64,000 nucleotides of DNA from a virus: UHGV virus genome UHGV-0351052; one strand, written 5' to 3'. Below the pieces are notes generated by a model, which was not told the origin of the DNA, made no database searches, and saw only the letters and a list, made by a program, of their open reading frames with translations. Shown one piece after another: positions 100 through 58,049 of this stretch. Made by a program: the position numbers and the translations under genes. Numbering within the stretch: position 1 is the first letter of the stretch; each line of letters begins with the position of its first letter.

Positions 100-1611
100 A
101 TGACTGACATTAAAGTACATTTTTATGATTTTAGTCACGTGAGAATTGATTGTGAAGAAAGTACATTTCATGAACTCCGTGATTTCTTTAGCTTTGAAGC
201 TGATGGGTATCGTTTTAATCCGAAATACAGATATGGCCACTGGGATGGACGAATCCGTCTTTTAGATTATAATCGTCTTCTTCCATTCGGCTTAGTCGGG
301 CAAATTAAAAAGTTCTGTGATAACTTTGGCTATAAAGCCTGGATTGACCCACAAATTAACGAAAAAGAAGAATTATCAAGAAAAGATTTTGATGAATGGC
401 TTTCTAAGTTAGAAATCTATTCAGGAAATAAAAGAATTGAACCACACTGGTATCAAAAAGATGCAGTGTTCGAAGGATTAGTTAATCGTCGTAGAATTCT
501 TAATCTTCCAACATCCGCTGGTAAATCGTTAATTCAAGCTTTGCTTGCGCGATATTATTTGGAAAATTATGAAGGTAAAATTCTTATCATTGTTCCAACA
601 ACTGCTCTGACAACTCAGATGGCTGATGACTTTGTTGACTATCGTTTATTCAGTCATGCAATGATAAAGAAAATCGGTGGCGGAGCATCAAAAGATGATA
701 AATATAAAAATGATGCACCAGTCGTTGTTGGTACATGGCAAACTGTAGTTAAACAACCGAAAGAATGGTTCTCACAGTTTGGAATGATGATGAATGATGA
801 ATGTCATCTTGCTACAGGAAAAAGTATTTCATCTATCATATCAGGTTTAAATAACTGCATGTTTAAATTTGGTTTGTCTGGTTCATTACGTGATGGCAAA
901 GCTAATATCATGCAGTATGTTGGAATGTTCGGTGAAATATTTAAGCCAGTAACGACTTCTAAATTAATGGAAGATGGACAAGTAACTGAGCTAAAAATTA
1001 ATAGTATTTTTCTTCGCTATCCAGATGAGTTCACTACTAAATTAAAGGGAAAAACTTATCAAGAAGAAATAAAAATTATTACTGGGCTCAGTAAAAGAAA
1101 TAAATGGATCGCTAAATTAGCTATTAAGCTTGCGCAAAAAGATGAAAACGCTTTTGTCATGTTTAAACATGTATCGCATGGTAAAGCTATTTTCGATTTA
1201 ATTAAAAATGAATACGATAAAGTTTATTACGTATCAGGGGAAGTTGATACCGAAACCCGCAACGTAATGAAAACCTTAGCTGAAAATGGTAAAGGAATAA
1301 TTATAGTAGCGAGTTATGGTGTATTTTCTACTGGTATTTCAGTTAAAAATCTGCATCATGTTGTTTTAGCGCACGGCGTTAAATCAAAAATCATTGTATT
1401 ACAAACAATCGGTCGTGTATTACGTAAGCATGGTTCTAAAACAGTCGCAACAGTCTGGGACCTCATAGATGATTGTGGCGTTAAGCCAAAATCTGCTAAT
1501 ACGAAAAAGAAATATGTCCATTTGAACTATCTTTTAAAACACGGCATTGATCGTATTCAGCGCTACGCAGATGAAAAATTTAATTACGTAATGAAAACAG
1601 TTAATTTATAA
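100..1611 (+). CDS. uvsW: UvsW SF2 helicase (RNA-DNA and DNA-DNA helicase)
   Basis: 503 aa ORF; Walker A PTSAGKS and DECH box; matches T4 UvsW as recalled. Confidence 0.95.
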   Translation: MTDIKVHFYDFSHVRIDCEESTFHELRDFFSFEADGYRFNPKYRYGHWDGRIRLLDYNRLLPFGLVGQIKKFCDNFGYKAWIDPQINEKEELSRKDFDEWLSKLEIYSGNKRIEPHWYQKDAVFEGLVNRRRILNLPTSAGKSLIQALLARYYLENYEGKILIIVPTTALTTQMADDFVDYRLFSHAMIKKIGGGASKDDKYKNDAPVVVGTWQTVVKQPKEWFSQFGMMMNDECHLATGKSISSIISGLNNCMFKFGLSGSLRDGKANIMQYVGMFGEIFKPVTTSKLMEDGQVTELKINSIFLRYPDEFTTKLKGKTYQEEIKIITGLSKRNKWIAKLAIKLAQKDENAFVMFKHVSHGKAIFDLIKNEYDKVYYVSGEVDTETRNVMKTLAENGKGIIIVASYGVFSTGISVKNLHHVVLAHGVKSKIIVLQTIGRVLRKHGSKTVATVWDLIDDCGVKPKSANTKKKYVHLNYLLKHGIDRIQRYADEKFNYVMKTVNL

Positions 1612-2343: not shown

Positions 2344-2756
2344 TATTTTCCAGCCTCAAATGCTCGCATGTCTTGAATATGCTTAATGGCAAATCCACGT
2401 GATTTAATAGCATCAAGAGCTCCGCTACAGAAATCCAATAAAATCCCCCAATACTGTAACGAGGTATCAACCTTTAAAACATCCTTATCAGCTGATAGAA
2501 CTGTCTTCATTTCTGATTTCTCGTAACGATCCATACTAAATTCATCACCATCTCCTCGTCCCGAGTAGTAGTCTAATCTAGCTTTAAGAGCAACTTTTTT
2601 CTGTGCGTCAATTCTAAGCATTTCCTTTTTAATACTTGAATGCTTATTAAGCCATTTACTATATAACATCACATTATTAGCTGCTTCATACTGTAATTTA
2701 GTCGAATCTATAAACACATCTTTCTTCAATTCTTCTTGAAGATCTTCTAATCTCAT
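2343..2756 (-). CDS. uvsY: UvsY recombination mediator protein
   Basis: 137 aa; matches T4 UvsY as recalled. Confidence 0.95.
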   Translation of the reverse strand: MRLEDLQEELKKDVFIDSTKLQYEAANNVMLYSKWLNKHSSIKKEMLRIDAQKKVALKARLDYYSGRGDGDEFSMDRYEKSEMKTVLSADKDVLKVDTSLQYWGILLDFCSGALDAIKSRGFAIKHIQDMRAFEAGK

Positions 2757-4647: not shown

Positions 4648-5822
4648 TGAGTATGTTGCAACGCCCCGGATATCCAAATCTCAGCGTTAAATTATTTGAT
4701 AGCTACGACGCTTGGAGTAATAATAGATTTGTTGAATTAGCTGCTACTATTACCACATTAACTATGCGGGATTCTCTTTATGGACGAAATGAAGGAATGC
4801 TGCAGTTTTATGATTCTAAAAACATCCATACAAAAATGGATGGAAATGAAATAATTCAGATTTCTGTAGCTAATGCAAATGATATTAATAATGTTAAAAC
4901 ACGAATTTATGGATGTAAGCATTTTTCCGTGTCAGTAGATTCAAAAGGTGATAACATCATTGCTATTGAATTGGGAACTATTCATTCTATAGAAAATCTT
5001 AAATTTGGTAGACCATTTTTCCCTGATGCAGGTGAATCTATAAAAGAAATGCTTGGTGTCATTTATCAGGATCGCACATTATTAACTCCAGCAATAAATG
5101 CTATAAATGCTTATGTTCCTGATATTCCATGGACTAGCACATTTGAAAACTATTTGTCATATGTAAGAGAAGTTGCTCTAGCTGTAGGAAGCGACAAATT
5201 TGTATTTGTGTGGCAAGACATCATGGGAGTTAACATGATGGACTATGATATGATGATAAATCAAGAACCATATCCAATGATTGTCGGTGAGCCATCTTTA
5301 ATAGGTCAATTCATCCAAGAATTAAAATATCCATTAGCATATGATTTTGTTTGGTTGACTAAATCGAATCCTCACAAACGTGACCCAATGAAAAATGCTA
5401 CTATCTATGCTCATTCATTTTTAGATTCTTCATTGCCAATGATTACTACAGGAAAGGGCGAAAACTCTATTGTAGTGTCAAGGTCAGGTGCTTATTCTGA
5501 AATGACTTATAGGAATGGATATGAAGAAGCTATTCGTCTTCAAACTATGGCACAATATGACGGTTATGCTAAATGTTCTACTGTCGGTAATTTTAACTTG
5601 ACTCCTGGTGTTAAAATTATTTTTAATGATAGTAAAAACCAATTTAAAACAGAATTTTACGTTGATGAAGTTATCCATGAATTATCCAATAATAATTCAG
5701 TAACTCATCTATATATGTTCACTAATGCAACGAAACTGGAAACAATAGACCCAGTTAAGGTTAAAAATGAATTTAAATCTGATACTACCACTGAAGAAAG
5801 TAGTTCTTCCAATAAGCAATAA
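4647..5822 (+). CDS. 27: baseplate hub protein gp27
   Basis: 391 aa; T4 gp27 length. Confidence 0.95.
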
Positions 5823-23320: not shown

Positions 23321-24521
<1,201 letters not shown>

Positions 24522-25956: not shown

Positions 25957-27544
<1,588 letters not shown>

Positions 27545-44498: not shown

Positions 44499-44506
44499 TA
44501 TAAATA
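44499..44506 (+). promoter_or_regulatory. late promoter TATAAATA for gene 36
   Basis: exact TATAAATA 24 nt upstream of gene 36 ATG. Confidence 0.5.
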
Positions 44507-52660: not shown

Positions 52661-52864
52661 TTACTTCTCGATCGCGATAACTATCGTGATAATACGTTGA
52701 ATTCCGAACGCAAGAAGACCTCCTGCTACGGCTGAAACAACACCTAAACCCGCCAGTAAAATGCCACCAGATACTAATGCAGCGCTTGTAATACCTATGA
52801 ATGGACTCATTTGATTTCCTCTAAATCTTTGGTGTATTCTGTAACTACACCAGTAGTTTTCCAA
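52661..52864 (-). CDS. small membrane protein (Gly/Ala-rich TM segment)
   Basis: track ORF starts at TTG; likely true start is internal ATG (MSPFIGITSAAL...) overlapping gene 52 stop. Confidence 0.45.
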   Translation of the reverse strand: MENYWCSYRIHQRFRGNQMSPFIGITSAALVSGGILLAGLGVVSAVAGGLLAFGIQRIITIVIAIEK

Positions 52865-54135
52865 TATTCGTTTTCTTCTTTTTTAGCTTTAGCTTCTTCA
52901 GCAAGTTTCTTTGCTTCATCGGAGGTCATATGAAAAATATTCATTCCAACTAATTTATCAACATAAGAAGAATACATATCGATTTTCGAAAGTTCTTCGG
53001 TCAGTTCTTTACGAGTTTTACCCTGTACAACAATTTCACCTGAAATTACTTTCTTAATGAAATGTGCCTTGGCAAAGGCTAAACGAAAAGCTGACTCAGT
53101 TTCTTTAATTTTGTTATCAATTCGTTTTTGGACATAAGTTTTACGAACTTCAACGAAGTCTTTAATTAAATCAACTACGTTATCGTAAACTTGTAGCTTT
53201 CCTTTCTCATTAATGACAGTAATATTCTGAGAACGACGCTCAATCAGTCCGAAGTCTTTCATAATTTTTGCATGGCGTTCTTCTTCATTATCGCTCAAAG
53301 AGTATTCTTTTCGGAATTTAACTTTGAATCCAAAACCATGCTCACCACAAGCATCATCCCATGTAATGAAGCCTTTATCTTCAAGCGGGTCTAAGATTTT
53401 ACTCACATAAGTTTCACGATCATACTTATATGGAATCTCGGTGATATGCATTTGAGTTCGTGAAGTAAACTTATATGTTCCACGAATTTCATATTGCCCA
53501 TCAATTTCAACGACTTCACCACGAAATTCTGGGAATTCTACCTTCGGTTTAGTTACTTTCTTTCCTTGAAGAGCTTGCAATACAGCTTTCTTAACAGAAG
53601 AAACACTATGAGGAAGAATGTAAGTTGCATAACCAGTTGCAATACCGGAAACGCCATTAAGAAGAACAGTAGGAATAACAGGCAAATAGAAAGCAGGCGG
53701 AATGTGTTCTTTATCTTGATGTACCGGAGCATATTCAGTATCTTTATATACGTTATAGAAATTTTTACTTACACGAGCAAAAATATAACGACTTGCCGCT
53801 GCCTTTTGGACAGTACGAGAACCAAAGTTTCCTTGACCATCTAACAGAGGAAAGTTATTATTCCAAGTGTTCGCCATCAAAGCACCCGCATCTTGTGCAG
53901 AGTTTTCACCATGGTGATATCCAAGGTCCGCTACACCACCTGCGATAGAAGCGAGCTTATGAAACTTATCTTTATTTCCTCGTGCCAAATCAAGAGCTCG
54001 AGCAATAACAAATCGTTGAACTGGCTTAAATCCATCAATCATATTTGGAATGGCACGATTTTCAACCGTGTACATAGCATAAGCCAATGCTTCATTATCA
54101 ATGATACTTTTTAAATCACGATTATTCAGTTGCAT
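52807..54135 (-). CDS. 52: DNA topoisomerase II medium subunit gp52
   Basis: 442 aa; GyrA-like breakage-reunion domain; synteny. Confidence 0.95.
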   Translation of the reverse strand: MQLNNRDLKSIIDNEALAYAMYTVENRAIPNMIDGFKPVQRFVIARALDLARGNKDKFHKLASIAGGVADLGYHHGENSAQDAGALMANTWNNNFPLLDGQGNFGSRTVQKAAASRYIFARVSKNFYNVYKDTEYAPVHQDKEHIPPAFYLPVIPTVLLNGVSGIATGYATYILPHSVSSVKKAVLQALQGKKVTKPKVEFPEFRGEVVEIDGQYEIRGTYKFTSRTQMHITEIPYKYDRETYVSKILDPLEDKGFITWDDACGEHGFGFKVKFRKEYSLSDNEEERHAKIMKDFGLIERRSQNITVINEKGKLQVYDNVVDLIKDFVEVRKTYVQKRIDNKIKETESAFRLAFAKAHFIKKVISGEIVVQGKTRKELTEELSKIDMYSSYVDKLVGMNIFHMTSDEAKKLAEEAKAKKEENEYWKTTGVVTEYTKDLEEIK

Positions 54136-54139
54136 AAAT

Positions 54140-54280
54140 TTACCATACTAGTGAATGTAGTGCCATAATAACATCAGAAATGAAAAGCACGACTTGAATT
54201 AATCCGAACATTATTCCGTAATATAATGCTATCAATAAAATAGCAAGGGCTAATGAATAGCCCAAGATTTTCTTAATCAT
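54140..54280 (-). CDS. small hydrophobic membrane protein (46 aa)
   Basis: hand-translated ORF MIKKILGYSLALAILLIALYYG...; position of T4 ac region. Confidence 0.4.
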   Translation of the reverse strand: MIKKILGYSLALAILLIALYYGIMFGLIQVVLFISDVIMALHSLVW

Positions 54281-54431
54281 TAGTAGATAACAACACAAAT
54301 GTTAAACATGCACACATACCCTGGGCTAAAGCCTGTGAAAACACACTGCTAGAATCGATACAGATAGTTAAAACACATGCTACTATCCAACAAATAAATG
54401 AAATAACTCCTAATAATTTTGCGATATTCAT
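54273..54431 (-). CDS. small hydrophobic membrane protein (52 aa)
   Basis: hand-translated ORF MNIAKLLGVISFICWIVACVL...; candidate ac homolog. Confidence 0.4.
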   Translation of the reverse strand: MNIAKLLGVISFICWIVACVLTICIDSSSVFSQALAQGMCACLTFVLLSTND

Positions 54432-54438
54432 ATTTTCC

Positions 54439-54519
54439 TCACTGGCGTCCGAAGACGCCTTTGGTTTTAAGATTGTTACGATAGAACTGCATCACATGTT
54501 CGTTATGGAAATTACTCAT
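54439..54519 (-). CDS. stp: Stp peptide (26 aa), host anticodon-nuclease/restriction modulator
   Basis: hand translation [26 protein letters not shown] matches T4 Stp as recalled; start overlaps ndd stop. Confidence 0.75.
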
Positions 54520-54971
54520 TAATATGCCTGCAAAACAAATTTAAAGTTATCAGCCAACATACGGTTCATTTCTTCAAGTGTTTGATACTCAGAATGATGA
54601 TTACGAGTAAATGCCAAAGCTAACTGACCTTTACCAAATCCCGTCGTCAGAGGTTTCATCTTAGAAGCAGGCAAATAAAATACTGCGTATGGAACATTAT
54701 TATTTGCAATAGTGCGCGCGAGCTGAGACCGACGTTGACGAATATGACTTAGAACTGCACTGAATCCTTGTTTAGAACGCTGATTACCTACATAAAATCG
54801 TGCAGATACGCATGAACCATATGAACCATCGAATTCACTTACTAAAAAGTAAAATCCAGGTTTAGATAAAATATCTTTGTGTGGAGTTCCCAAAAACCAC
54901 TCACCACCCTTGATTGTACCAATAACAGTAGCGCCTGCGTTGTTCAGATCAGTAACAGTCATATATTTCAT
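54519..54971 (-). CDS. ndd: Ndd nucleoid disruption protein
   Basis: 150 aa from [13 protein letters not shown] (track ORF extends 16 codons upstream); matches T4 Ndd as recalled. Confidence 0.9.
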
Positions 54972-55031
54972 ATTAATTTCCTCTAAATTATTTTCTACTC
55001 CAAGGCCGCATGAATACACACGGCCATTAAA

Positions 55032-55247
55032 TTAATCGTCGCAGTCGACGCTCAATTCCCAAAACTCTTCTACAGTATAAGTTTCAGTATCATTTTCAAT
55101 ACAGAAACGTTCATTACTATTATTTTCTAAAGTAGCGTTAACTGTCGGTTTCTCGCTAGTGCTCTTAAGAGGTGAAATACGAATTAACTGATCACCGTTA
55201 TCTAAACAGAAAATTTCACCAACTTTTACATCTTTAAAAATTTTCAT
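55032..55247 (-). CDS. hypothetical protein (71 aa)
   Basis: ORF. Confidence 0.55.
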   Translation of the reverse strand: MKIFKDVKVGEIFCLDNGDQLIRISPLKSTSEKPTVNATLENNSNERFCIENDTETYTVEEFWELSVDCDD

Positions 55248-55362
55248 AATTCACCTCAAGGAGTATAAAATCCGAATGCAGTTGTTGACCATCCCATCCA
55301 ATATGGAAAATTTGCACCAATGTAAAACATAAGAATATAAAACCAACCGCTCAGCAAATTCA

Positions 55363-55581
55363 TCATTTTACACCGTTCCAAATTGTTTCAACCACGGGTT
55401 TTAAACCATTTTGATGAATATCCATTCCGACTACTGCCATCAAATAGATTCCAACTACAACTGAACCTAAGGCAAAAATCAGCATGAAAATGAATAAAGC
55501 CGGAAAAATATTATCGAAAAACCATTCAATAAATGTAAAAGCACTGCGTTTACGCTTCATATTTTCCTCACATAAATCCAA
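55363..55581 (-). CDS. small membrane protein
   Basis: track ORF from TTG; probable ATG start at 55560; two predicted TM helices. Confidence 0.45.
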   Translation of the reverse strand: MDLCEENMKRKRSAFTFIEWFFDNIFPALFIFMLIFALGSVVVGIYLMAVVGMDIHQNGLKPVVETIWNGVK

Positions 55582-55816
55582 AGTAAACGTTTAATACATC
55601 AATCATTAAAACGATTGGGAATATACTCAAAACTATTAGTATTATAACTACATTCCATATAGCTTTAACAATCTTTTTCATTTTCTGTTCCTCCGTAGTT
55701 GATAGTTGTATAGTACCACAGAAGAACAGTCTTGTAAACAACTTTTTTAAAAATATTCGTAATAAATGTGAATACCAACTACTACCGCTGAAACCTGTGC
55801 AACCCACCACGCACAA
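55568..55816 (-). CDS. small membrane protein (true start probably internal MKKIVK)
   Basis: track ORF spans an early promoter, so only the distal ~37 codons are likely translated. Confidence 0.35.
   Translation of the reverse strand: MCVVGCTGFSGSSWYSHLLRIFLKKLFTRLFFCGTIQLSTTEEQKMKKIVKAIWNVVIILIVLSIFPIVLMIDVLNVYFGFM
55710..55739 (-). promoter_or_regulatory. sigma70-type early promoter (-35 GTTTACA, 17 bp, -10 TACTAT)
   Basis: repeated promoter family. Confidence 0.5.
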
Positions 55817-55985
55817 GCAATAAGTACAGAATTCAAAATTTTCATAATAACCTCATCACAAAAGTAAATGTTAAACAAATTACTGGAATACTAATTAACC
55901 AAACAAAACACCACCATAATGAACTCATAGCTCAATCTCAGCGATTTTCATTTTATTCTCCAAATCCGTATCAGTTGATAGTTGT

Positions 55986-56015
55986 ATAGTACCACGGTCC
56001 TTGTGGTATGTAAAC
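55986..56015 (-). promoter_or_regulatory. sigma70-type early promoter (-35 GTTTACA, 17 bp, -10 TACTAT)
   Basis: repeated promoter family, immediately downstream of denB. Confidence 0.5.
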
Positions 56016-56031
56016 TGTTTTGTGAATTTTT

Positions 56032-56589
56032 TTAAATGGAAAGATACCATCCGTTGTAGTTGCTTTTTCTTACAACCTTACGAAGGTCTTCTCTGTCACC
56101 GATGAACTTCGGAGTGTACTGGATGACACCTGGATGAATTTCTTTAGTGTTGAATATAATTATACAGTCAGCGACCTGATGATTCAGAATGGGTCCTAGA
56201 TTTATTCCAGAACCATATGGATACTCTCCGCTGCATCCTGTTGTTACAGAAATCCAACGTGAGTCAGTTTGATGTGTCTTAACTTCTACACGAAGCCCGC
56301 AGTATTTTGGATGTGCTAAAACATCCCATGCATACGTGTACGGATCATCGACATCTTCTTGACCTTTGTTAACATAGCCGCTCAACCAATCTGCTACAAA
56401 AAACTCTGCGTACACCGCGATACGGCATCTTTCGATAACTTCTGCTTTATCCTGGTTCGGGTTTTGTTTTAAAGAGTATCTTGCTGTATCAGCAATTTTG
56501 ACCTTCATTTCACTAGTTAAGTCACTGTTCGATAGGGTAAATGTCGGAATCTGAAATAGTCTCTGTAAACCCGGATTCGTTTTCTGCAT
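56032..56589 (-). CDS. denB: endonuclease IV
   Basis: 185 aa; position between ndd and rIIB as in T4. Confidence 0.8.
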   Translation of the reverse strand: MQKTNPGLQRLFQIPTFTLSNSDLTSEMKVKIADTARYSLKQNPNQDKAEVIERCRIAVYAEFFVADWLSGYVNKGQEDVDDPYTYAWDVLAHPKYCGLRVEVKTHQTDSRWISVTTGCSGEYPYGSGINLGPILNHQVADCIIIFNTKEIHPGVIQYTPKFIGDREDLRKVVRKSNYNGWYLSI

Positions 56590-56851
56590 TTAAACTTTCC
56601 TTTTTACCGCTGAGATAGGCGTTATATACTTTAAGAGTGCCATAATAAATTCGATCATTTTCATCTAAAGAATTACGATCAAGTTCATCGAGATTCTTTT
56701 TGTCCATGACTATAACATCATTGCAGTAAAGAACTCCAAGTTTTTCATGCCCAAATTCGAATTTATTGCAGTACACAATATTAGCATAATGATTACCATG
56801 TAGAGAAATTTCTTTAATTCCGGGATCACCAACATTCATAAAGTGAATCAT
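56522..56851 (-). CDS. hypothetical protein (109 aa)
   Basis: ORF overlapping denB start. Confidence 0.5.
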   Translation of the reverse strand: MIHFMNVGDPGIKEISLHGNHYANIVYCNKFEFGHEKLGVLYCNDVIVMDKKNLDELDRNSLDENDRIYYGTLKVYNAYLSGKKESLNAENESGFTETISDSDIYPIEQ

Positions 56852-56887
56852 AATTTCCTCTTAAAACAAAAGGGCCGAAGCCCTTAT

Positions 56888-57082
56888 TTATTTAAATTGT
56901 GCAATTCTTTTCTCTAAACAGTCAGCATAAGATTTCATTGAGATGAACTGTGAAAGTAGCAGTTCTTGCTCAACTGCACTAACCGTTAGAAACTTTGCGC
57001 TTTCTAAAAATTTGCTCAGTGCATTAATTTTGAGCATTAATTGATCGTATTCTTCTTTTACTCGTGCTTGATAACCTAACAT
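56888..57082 (-). CDS. hypothetical protein (64 aa)
   Basis: ORF flanked by GC hairpins. Confidence 0.5.
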   Translation of the reverse strand: MLGYQARVKEEYDQLMLKINALSKFLESAKFLTVSAVEQELLLSQFISMKSYADCLEKRIAQFK

Positions 57083-57110
57083 AATTTTCCTTAGTTAAGG
57101 GTCGAAGCCC

Positions 57111-58049
57111 TTATTTAAATTGTTCAGTAACGTCTTCAACTACTTCGTATTGGCAGGTACGCATTTTAGCATCGTTGTAATCAATCGGAATTGATACTAC
57201 ATCGCGAGGATGTACTTTAACTTTTACAACTCGACTAGTTGAACTGCCAAAGTGACGAATATAAGATTTAGAACACACATGCAGACCATGAGAACAAGTT
57301 TGTGTATCATCGTCATTCACACGAGTACGTGGCATTTTAACTACTTTACCCGGACTGTTATCAAAGGTGTTTGAGTGACAGTCAAAGTAGTTGTCACGAA
57401 CTACTTTCCAAGCATAGAAGTAACCATCTTCTGTAATTTCAATATCATTTGCTACCAAGAAATCAAAGAGTCGAGATACCGCTTTTTGGCTTGGGTTTTC
57501 CAACAGATTTTCCAAGAACGGAAAATAAAATTCAAAGTTTTCGCCTTTTTCCATCGAGTCAAGAATACGATCAACCAAACCAGACCGCAATTCAATATTT
57601 TGATAGAACAAGCTTCCACCTTCAATTCGAACATCGCCGGAAATATATTTTTCAACAGCGCGACGAACATTAATTTTTTGCGCAGCTTCTTCCAGCTTAT
57701 CCGCTACAAGCAGATTAAGAATTTCCTGGAAGTTTGAATGAGTATTAGGAGTTGCGTTATAAGTTACACCGTCAACAGTAATTGAAATGAATTTTTTAGA
57801 AGCATTCCAAATAATATCAGATTTAGCAACTGGAGCAATAGCTACATCGCTATTAACTTTAACTGTAATATCACCGCTAATAGTAACTTTAGGATGTTTA
57901 GCTTCTTCAGCATTTTTCAAAACACGACGGATTGTGTCAACCGATACACCTTGCCAATCAGCCAATTCCTGCTGGGTGTAATTACCACTTGAATACAGTT
58001 TAACAATTTCAGCTTGTTCGTTTTTGGTCAGGCATTTAATATTGTACAT
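57111..58049 (-). CDS. rIIB: rIIB membrane-associated protein
   Basis: 312 aa; synteny with rIIA. Confidence 0.9.
   Translation of the reverse strand: MYNIKCLTKNEQAEIVKLYSSGNYTQQELADWQGVSVDTIRRVLKNAEEAKHPKVTISGDITVKVNSDVAIAPVAKSDIIWNASKKFISITVDGVTYNATPNTHSNFQEILNLLVADKLEEAAQKINVRRAVEKYISGDVRIEGGSLFYQNIELRSGLVDRILDSMEKGENFEFYFPFLENLLENPSQKAVSRLFDFLVANDIEITEDGYFYAWKVVRDNYFDCHSNTFDNSPGKVVKMPRTRVNDDDTQTCSHGLHVCSKSYIRHFGSSTSRVVKVKVHPRDVVSIPIDYNDAKMRTCQYEVVEDVTEQFK

Follow-up and report, generated by a model that had tools for sequence, protein, structure and literature searches.

The analysed window is a stretch of 64,000 nucleotides from a virus (UHGV virus genome UHGV-0351052). Its last 24 kb show at most about 96% identity to any deposited phage record and, thus, the window represents a Tequatrovirus that is a relative of T4, not T4 itself. 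Three very small genes are located between the genes for the topoisomerase II medium subunit and the nucleoid disruption protein, in the following arrangement:

52807..54135, minus strand: gene 52, topoisomerase II medium subunit (442 aa), the downstream neighbour of 52.1
54140..54280, minus strand: gene 52.1, ATG start, TAA stop, 46 aa, Pfam DUF7396, product MIKKILGYSLALAILLIALYYGIMFGLIQVVLFISDVIMALHSLVW
54273..54431, minus strand: gene ac, ATG start, TAA stop, 52 aa, product MNIAKLLGVISFICWIVACVLTICIDSSSVFSQALAQGMCACLTFVLLSTND
54439..54519, minus strand: gene stp, ATG start, TGA stop, 26 aa, a hydrophilic peptide
54519..54971, minus strand: ndd, nucleoid disruption protein (150 aa; PF06591, E = 7e-89), the upstream neighbour of stp

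A preliminary description of this DNA, made from the sequence alone, had placed three ORFs of 46, 52 and 26 codons at 54140..54519, and both the coordinates and the codon counts proved to be exact. Of the four junctions, two show the overlapping starts and stops that it mentioned: the ATG of 52.1 overlaps the ac stop by 8 nt (ATGATTAA), and the start of stp has 1 nt in common with the stop of ndd (TAATG). By contrast, ac and stp are separated by a gap of 7 nt and do not overlap, and 4 nt lie between 52.1 and the ATG of gene 52. The ac gene is preceded by a strong Shine-Dalgarno sequence (GAGGAAAA, 54434..54441), within which the stop codon of stp sits. No Shine-Dalgarno sequence is evident upstream of the 52.1 ATG and, since this start overlaps the ac stop, translation of 52.1 is most likely coupled to that of ac. 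A second cluster of small ORFs, noted earlier at 55250-55930, corresponds to the counterparts of T4 ndd.2, ndd.2a, ndd.4, ndd.5 and ndd.6.

When ORFs with an ATG start and 25 or more codons are counted, the sense-strand ORF coverage of the 386-nt space between gene 52 and ndd amounts to 96.6%. In dinucleotide-preserving shuffles, the mean coverage was 27%, and the observed value was reached in 2 of 5000. It is hardly credible that the three ORFs are untranslated chance frames in AT-rich spacer DNA, even though they are short (26-52 codons) and fall below standard ORF cut-offs, stp or 52.1 is left unannotated in many deposited genomes, and the T4 orthologues have gone unseen in shotgun proteomics. 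Apart from the tiling, which shuffled sequences so seldom matched, the frames, lengths and gene order are maintained across genera, curated family profiles match the products, and mutations in T4 stp and ac give phenotypes. As for the proteomics, the shotgun approach routinely overlooks small hydrophobic peptides, and the failure to detect these ones in the T4 proteome is to be expected because of their size and hydrophobicity. In a time-course omics study of T4 published in 2022, the RNAs of 52.1, ac and stp were classed as early and their protein class was given as NA, and the Ndd and Ndd.1 proteins were detected (PMC9697503 supplement). Since the peptides are absent from that proteome, the case for translation rests on genetics for ac and stp, both defined in T4 by mutant phenotypes (PMC3014915; bioRxiv 10.1101/2025.06.30.662393), and on evolutionary signatures for 52.1.

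The evolutionary signatures were examined by comparing the window, codon by codon, with 11-13 relatives. At high divergence, synonymous changes were found to be far above non-synonymous ones. For gp52.1, pS and pN were 0.43 and 0.08 against JS98, and 0.76 and 0.18 against RB69, which gives a whole-gene pN/pS of 0.18-0.23; from close relatives it differs by only 3-5 substitutions, and the pN/pS of 1.22 against T4 is uninformative. Stp shows a pS of 0.15-0.30 with a pN of 0 against close relatives, and a pS of 0.82 with a pN of 0.06 (pN/pS, 0.07) against the copy of the Kagunavirus Ro145clw. Ac appears less constrained than Stp and gp52.1 (pN/pS, 0.2-0.8). These values point to purifying selection on the peptides wherever the divergence suffices to judge. 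The preliminary description had made its reading depend on the translation of the ORFs and on the conservation of the peptides in related phages. The former is upheld for ac and stp by the T4 mutants, although the T4 proteome gives no protein class; the latter is fully borne out, each peptide being kept, under purifying selection, in 476-730 phage records. We consider it highly probable (about 0.93 for the explanation as a whole) that the locus comprises three genuine, separately translated micro-genes of a T4-like genome, which end an early unit running from ndd.6 to ndd and on through stp, ac and 52.1 to 52.

The 26-aa product had been recognised as Stp, and it is indeed identical to the T4 Stp translated from NC_000866 165505..165585. 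Profile searches matched it over positions 1-26 of 26 to Pfam PF08133, the anticodon nuclease activator family (75.3 bits against a curated cut-off of 25; E = 2e-21), as well as to phrog_6763 (E = 4.4e-21). The peptide is hydrophilic (GRAVY, -1.03), its first 18 residues, positions 4-14 included, are intact, and its gene occupies the slot between ndd and ac. In a tblastn search, Stp was found in 614 phage records, in 423 of them with at least 99% identity; in a sample of 40 records that encode it, most carry no annotated stp feature. Residues 1-18 are constant in most of the T4-like relatives examined, the exceptions being ESh30 (one substitution) and JS98 (three), and the C-terminus exists in two forms, that of T4 (TKGVFGRQ) and that of T2 (NFGILGFKK). 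This pattern fits the published mutational data, according to which loss-of-function suppressor mutations cluster at residues 4-14 and the effect of removing the last 8 codons is no more than moderate (PMC3014915).

According to the literature, binding of T4 Stp to the type Ic restriction complex stops restriction but leaves modification unblocked, and EcoR124I, an enzyme without an anticodon nuclease, is also inhibited; moreover, mutations in T4 stp were obtained through their ability to suppress pnk and rli defects when the host is prr+ (PMC3014915). Because the two peptides are identical, the type Ic anti-restriction and PrrC-activating function can be transferred from T4 to the Stp of the window with high confidence. 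The two repair genes that had been linked to Stp in the preliminary description were confirmed at the coordinates given there, with the expected domains:

23321..24226, minus strand: pseT, polynucleotide 5'-kinase/3'-phosphatase (301 aa; HAD_PNKP, E = 2.4e-60; AAA_33, E = 2.2e-23)
25957..27081, minus strand: rnlA (gene 63), RNA ligase 1 (374 aa; T4_Rnl1_C, E = 5.4e-39; RNA_lig_T4_1, E = 2.9e-25)

PseT combines a P-loop kinase with a HAD phosphatase, and RnlA contains an adenylyltransferase together with an Rnl1-specific C-terminal domain. In the proposed mechanism, Stp would act as a soluble early peptide of 26 residues that binds the type Ic complex of the host (EcoprrI, EcoR124I), so that DNA restriction is blocked. 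In prr+ hosts, this action would free the masked PrrC anticodon nuclease, which would cut tRNA-Lys 5' of the wobble base; the cut tRNA-Lys would then be healed by PseT and resealed by RnlA, both encoded in the window. Stp, PseT and RnlA are thus all present, as had been claimed for a "whole trigger-and-repair set". The set is not self-contained, however: the primary role of Stp is to inhibit type Ic restriction, and since the activation of PrrC is a host counter-defence found in prr+ strains only, the window holds the phage half of the arms race.

It is possible, though we regard it as unlikely, that Stp is a plain type Ic anti-restriction peptide and that its link with PseT and RnlA is incidental, these enzymes serving in general RNA repair and processing. 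The inhibition of EcoR124I is in line with such a view, as are the distance of about 27-31 kb between stp and pseT/rnlA in the window, the presence of stp-like genes in small siphoviruses, and the loss of stp from the locus in RB69 and ESH35. However, the T4 stp mutations came precisely as suppressors of pnk/rli defects on prr+ hosts, and in phage Rtp the gene for the Stp homologue lies two genes from a polynucleotide kinase/phosphatase gene, a proximity that argues for a functional association of Stp with the kinase/phosphatase. Furthermore, a plain anti-restriction role would refine the accepted model of Stp as the trigger of PrrC rather than contradict it.

The two hydrophobic peptides, described earlier as uncharacterised, are in fact the products of the named T4 genes ac and 52.1, and Ac, on which genetic work dates back to the 1960s, determines acridine sensitivity, the wild-type allele being the one that confers it. 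Ac matches phrog_2501 over residues 1-51 (E = 2.3e-23). A search of the local Pfam copy gave no match for Ac; relatives that are 81-98% identical to it carry a precomputed assignment to PF26944 and go by the name of acridine resistance protein. Ac is strongly hydrophobic (GRAVY, 1.44), with two hydrophobic segments and a short polar loop, and the AF2 model, which is of moderate confidence (pLDDT, 73.7), has helices at residues 2-25 and 30-51. Hydropathy and model together support the prediction that Ac is a helical hairpin in the membrane. A published ESMFold description of T4 Ac agrees with this two-helix layout (bioRxiv 10.1101/2025.06.30.662393).

In a tblastn search, Ac was found in 476 phage records, with a best identity of 96.2%. 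The allele of the window is unlike every database copy: the best match in the protein collection (P0013) reaches 98%, S27 is absent from all of the relatives examined, and C42 is found in P0013 only. A wider search among 5.8 billion proteins gave 8 clusters, nearly all of them from T4-like phages or metagenome contigs. One Ac cluster bears the database label Enterococcus faecalis.

E. coli becomes more sensitive to acriflavine when T4 ac is expressed, and T4 deleted for ac is resistant (bioRxiv 10.1101/2025.06.30.662393; PMC13250531). Interference of Ac with AcrAB-TolC has been put forward by the authors of that work as a proposal, not as a demonstration (bioRxiv 10.1101/2025.06.30.662393). 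By analogy, the 52-residue Ac of the window, a predicted helical hairpin of the inner membrane, would in its wild-type form cause acridines to accumulate in the infected cell, and, following the hypothesis in the literature, it might do so by blocking AcrAB-TolC efflux. The idea that Ac mimics AcrZ, the AcrB-binding peptide of E. coli, finds no support at the sequence level, as BLASTP with an AcrZ query gave no alignment. Likewise, the nonsense codon in ac of a T2 "escape mutant" was considered as a defence-escape mutation and rejected: the same TAA is present in a second, independent T2 derivative and is, thus, a feature of the stock.

The product of 52.1 matches PF24129 (DUF7396) over positions 1-46 of 46 (78.3 bits against a cut-off of 27; E = 4.8e-22), and also phrog_3595. 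With a GRAVY of 1.80 and two N-terminal lysines, it is modelled by AF2 as a single unbroken helix spanning residues 2-45 (pLDDT, 96.5). The hydropathy and the predicted helices of gp52.1 and Ac are in line with the earlier suggestion that these are membrane peptides. The tblastn search retrieved gp52.1 from 730 phage records. Among the 5.8 billion proteins, it forms 12 clusters, nearly all of them from T4-like phages or metagenome contigs. The length is 46 aa in 11 of these clusters and 47 aa in the twelfth, which is a deletion fusion, and 19 columns are invariant, including the QVVLFISD core. The hydrophobic stretch contains three polar residues (Q29, S35 and D36) that are invariant. The gene is found directly upstream of gene 52 in T4, ACG-C40, JS98, RB69 and the window. 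Only T4-like phages have gp52.1 and, across the genera of this group that were sampled, it is more widely conserved than ac or stp.

As an almost wholly hydrophobic single helix, gp52.1 is likely to work in the membrane, perhaps jointly with Ac. One may go further and suppose that, instead of being an independent product, it is coupled to Ac in translation and forms with it a module of two inner-membrane peptides that acts on a host envelope function, with Q29, S35 and D36 as the functional site. We consider this more specific proposal doubtful; if true, the candidate targets would include efflux through AcrAB-TolC and the stimulation of phosphatidylglycerol synthesis that the phage induces. 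In T4, the 52.1-denB block can be deleted (saDelta9, GT7) with a yield of about half the normal, and the phage-induced stimulation of phosphatidylglycerol synthesis is lost in the saDelta9 deletion. This effect is the sole physiological lead for the membrane peptides of the region. Judging from the T4 deletions, all three genes appear to be dispensable on laboratory hosts.

Several putative transcription and RNA signals were identified in and around the cluster:

55986..56014, minus strand: T4-type early promoter, upstream of ndd.6, by consensus only
55710..55738, minus strand: T4-type early promoter, upstream of ndd.4 (TTTACA, 17 nt including TG, TACTAT), by consensus only
54444..54459, minus strand: hairpin GGCGUC-UUCG-GACGCC of the CUUCGG tetraloop type (MFE, -13.6 kcal/mol; z = -2.2)
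54165..54189, minus strand: MotA-dependent middle promoter-like element (TGCTTTT, 12 nt, TATTAT) in the 3' half of 52.1

The two early promoters have an identical 23-nt core in common, and the one at 55710..55738 probably feeds early transcription through to stp, ac and 52.1. The MotA-like element is located some 30 nt 5' of the gene 52 start codon; its box and -10 sequence are conserved in T4, T2, ACG-C40, JS98 and RB69, while the neighbouring third codon positions vary. On the strength of the consensus, we regard 54165..54189 as a candidate middle promoter for gene 52, which could add to the nucleotide conservation of the 3' half of 52.1.

The hairpin occupies the last six codons of stp (21-26, G-V-F-G-R-Q), directly 5' of the ac ribosome-binding site. 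It is found in the T4-type stp allele, as represented by T4, ACG-C40, ESh30, UFV-AREG1 and JS98 (with one G-U pair), and is lacking in the T2-type allele, as it is in the stp genes of Rtp and Ro145clw, which still encode KTKGVFG. A role as intrinsic terminator on the mRNA (minus) strand was rejected, as the stem is followed by AGUGAGGAAAAUAUG and no U-tract is present there. In a terminator scan, the hairpin was terminator-like on the plus strand only, where a T-tract is found; even so, a terminator role on that strand is unlikely, the nearest late-promoter motif (TATAAATA) being located about 10 kb upstream, at 44499. In several deposited genomes, a "terminator" is annotated at the position of the hairpin and stp is omitted. 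An Rfam search over 53500..57500 (E <= 1) returned a single sub-threshold SraG hit elsewhere in that interval, and no family over the cluster or the hairpin.

These signals raise the question of whether nucleic-acid function, not the peptides, accounts for the conservation, with 52.1 conserved for the middle promoter and leader of gene 52 embedded in it, and the last codons of stp for the CUUCGG hairpin. The TGCTTTT-12-TAT(T/A)AT sequence is unchanged in T4, T2, JS98 and RB69, and QVVLFISD, the most invariant stretch of gp52.1, is encoded exactly at this element; the codons of stp covered by the hairpin belong to the C-terminal part of the peptide, which is functionally tolerant. We nevertheless find this explanation very improbable. 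The N-terminal half of gp52.1 lies outside the element and keeps its frame and hydrophobicity, within a constant length of 46 aa, across genera; third-position changes in the spacer of the element leave the amino acids unaltered; and the low pN/pS of gp52.1 holds for the whole gene. As KTKGVFG is kept in Rtp and Ro145clw, where the hairpin is absent, the C-terminus of Stp is constrained independently of the hairpin. In addition, peptide and nucleic-acid constraints can coexist.

The locus shows that real micro-genes, which are missed by routine ORF cut-offs and in many deposited annotations, can be recovered by a tool-free reading of the sequence. It offers a classic example of a host that has come to use an anti-restriction peptide of a phage as an alarm signal, and the window carries the entire phage side of this anti-restriction and tRNA-repair arms race. 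The function of gp52.1 is the only question touched by the locus that goes beyond established T4 knowledge.

Homologues of Stp are found in siphoviruses as well. The rtp6 product of Rtp (Drexlerviridae) and its counterpart in the Kagunavirus vB_EcoS-Ro145clw belong to the same peptide family as the Stp of the window, with a conserved core that begins H-N-(E/G)-H-(V/I). The Ro145clw peptide is 92% identical to that of the window, and the Rtp peptide has an N-terminal extension of 5 residues. Unlike in the window, no ndd, ac or 52.1 is found near these stp genes, which also lack the CUUCGG hairpin, and at the nucleotide level the synonymous sites are saturated with respect to the window (pS, 0.8-0.9). 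A spread of Stp to plasmids is not supported: the single matching record, a 44-kb non-mobilizable "plasmid", is probably a phage genome.

The locus is plastic among the T4-like relatives: in some of them, an additional membrane ORF of 57 aa separates ndd from stp, and variants with fusions or deletions occur as well. In the window, the arrangement is simply that of T4. RB69, JS98, ESh30 and UFV-AREG1 carry an alternative Ac allele in the slot upstream of 52.1, and in RB69, where stp is missing upstream, ac is immediately adjacent to 52.1. The alternative protein has 48-50 aa and two hydrophobic segments, and shares with the Ac of the window the central motif (S/T)-V-F/I-x-Q-A-x-x-Q-G/F; the copy of UFV-AREG1 is 45% identical to it over 48 residues. 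The loop reads D-S-S-S in the window and T-G-E-T-S in the alternative allele.

A search with a 1.4-kb region of the locus gave matches in 583 phage records, with a best identity of 96.5%. In Escherichia phage vB_EcoM_ACG-C40 (JN986846), gp52.1 and Stp are identical to those of the window, Ac likewise has 52 aa, the spacing is alike, and a 65-aa Ndd.2a-like ORF is present in both phages. The differences from the window are two amino acids in Ac and another gene content downstream of ndd.2a. In T4 itself (NC_000866.4, 165209..165585), 52.1, ac and stp (NP_049876, NP_049877 and NP_049878) are found with the order, strand, junctions and neighbours of the window, and the T4 reference and ACG-C40 both annotate exactly these three genes in the same order. 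A comparison with the T4 ac/stp region, as had been suggested earlier, thus returned the same genes, order and spacing. At the protein level, Stp is identical to its T4 counterpart in 26 of 26 residues, and gp52.1 in 43 of 46, the three substitutions (A14I, V17I and V23I) all being conservative. The Ac of the window has 52 residues as opposed to 51 in T4, and differs by A27S, Y42C and an extra T near the C-terminus; the two-helix layout and the ribosome-binding site are alike. The locus as a whole is already known, each of its elements being a named and annotated T4 gene. A phenotype is documented for two of the three genes (ac and stp), and for one of these, stp, the mechanism has been worked out.

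The stp gene of the window carries, close to its 3' end, a hairpin that is limited to the T4-type stp allele, and two kinds of promoter-like elements were located in the same region, all on the minus strand:

54444..54459, minus strand, CUUCGG-type tetraloop hairpin GGCGUC-UUCG-GACGCC, spanning stp codons 21-26
54165..54189, minus strand, MotA-dependent middle promoter-like sequence, TGCTTTT-12 nt-TATTAT, within the 52.1 coding region
55710..55738, minus strand, T4-type early promoter (TTTACA, then TGGTACTAT), upstream of ndd.4
55986..56014, minus strand, T4-type early promoter of the same type, upstream of ndd.6

The ribosome-binding site of ac lies directly 3' of the hairpin, and no U-tract was found downstream of the latter on the mRNA strand. 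In some deposited genomes that leave stp out, the hairpin is labelled as a terminator. The MotA-like element, which is kept in T4, T2, JS98 and RB69, is followed by the start of gene 52 about 30 nt downstream, while the two early promoters share an identical 23-nt core, GTGGTACTATACAACTATCAACT.

Comparison with T4-like relatives revealed an extra hydrophobic ORF and a rearranged segment at this locus:

L003 713..886, L006 1019..1192, L008 1510..1683 and L010 444..617 (relative loci), extra 57-aa hydrophobic ORF between ndd and stp
L008 (JS98) 1148..1219, minus strand, recombination scar composed of a 52.1 N-terminal fragment and a 5'-truncated T4-type stp in a different frame

The extra ORF, which ends in CFERLCKMCG(I/V)YE, is carried by IsaacDaniel, JK23, JS98 and UFV-AREG1, whereas both the window and T4 lack it. 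In the JS98 scar, the truncated stp retains the full CUUCGG hairpin, and an intact, divergent stp is present besides it; the scar points to repeated module shuffling at the stp/52.1 locus. Among metagenome-derived proteins, P0010 joins the N-terminus of Ndd to the C-terminus of gp52.1, and is a natural deletion taking out ndd through ac; P0016 is an Stp-Ac fusion of 81 aa. An extended Stp (59 aa) is found in LF73P3.

Two T2 derivative records differ from the window in ac itself:

L004 about 497..640 and L015 599..757, T2 ac with an internal stop

In both, codon 11 of ac is TAA (GVI*FICW), which makes the T2 stocks behind these records ac-null. That the stop is a T2 escape mutation was rejected in favour of a stock feature, given that the same TAA occurs in both records.

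Homologues of Stp were also detected outside T4-like phages (matches H200-H222), in small siphoviruses, namely those of Rtpvirus, Veterinaerplatzvirus and Kagunavirus and a Raoultella phage:

L014 (Rtp) 2432..2524, Stp homologue rtp6
L013 (Ro145clw) 2501..2578, Stp homologue, not annotated

The peptide is 80-92% conserved in these homologues, with synonymous sites saturated, and in Rtp a polynucleotide kinase/phosphatase gene is located two genes from rtp6. In the sampled phage database records, most deposited T4-like genomes have no annotation of stp and 52.1, and few of the 40 rows of the Stp sample hold features beyond the overlapping ndd. A few records bear clearly wrong labels at the locus, e.g., 'naphthalene 1,2-dioxygenase' and 'sugar ABC transporter permease'.

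Two further small ORFs lie nearby:

55925..56050, minus strand, 41-aa hydrophilic ORF overlapping the denB start
55363..55560, minus strand, intact 65-aa membrane ORF (Pfam DUF7248), compared with T4 (L002) 5433..5629

The C-terminus of the former (NKMKIAEIEL) is similar to the end of an 87-aa ORF of phage ESH35 (NEMKIAEIEL), and this ORF may be what remains of a longer gene. As for the latter, one nucleotide is missing from the T4 reference shortly past the ATG (ATGAA-CGT versus ATGAAGCGT in the window), so that the annotation of T4 shows two separate pieces instead, ndd.3 (26 aa) and ndd.2a (40 aa). Because of this deletion and the split annotation, set against the intact ORF of the window, the T4 laboratory sequence appears to contain a frameshifted copy of the 65-aa DUF7248 ORF.
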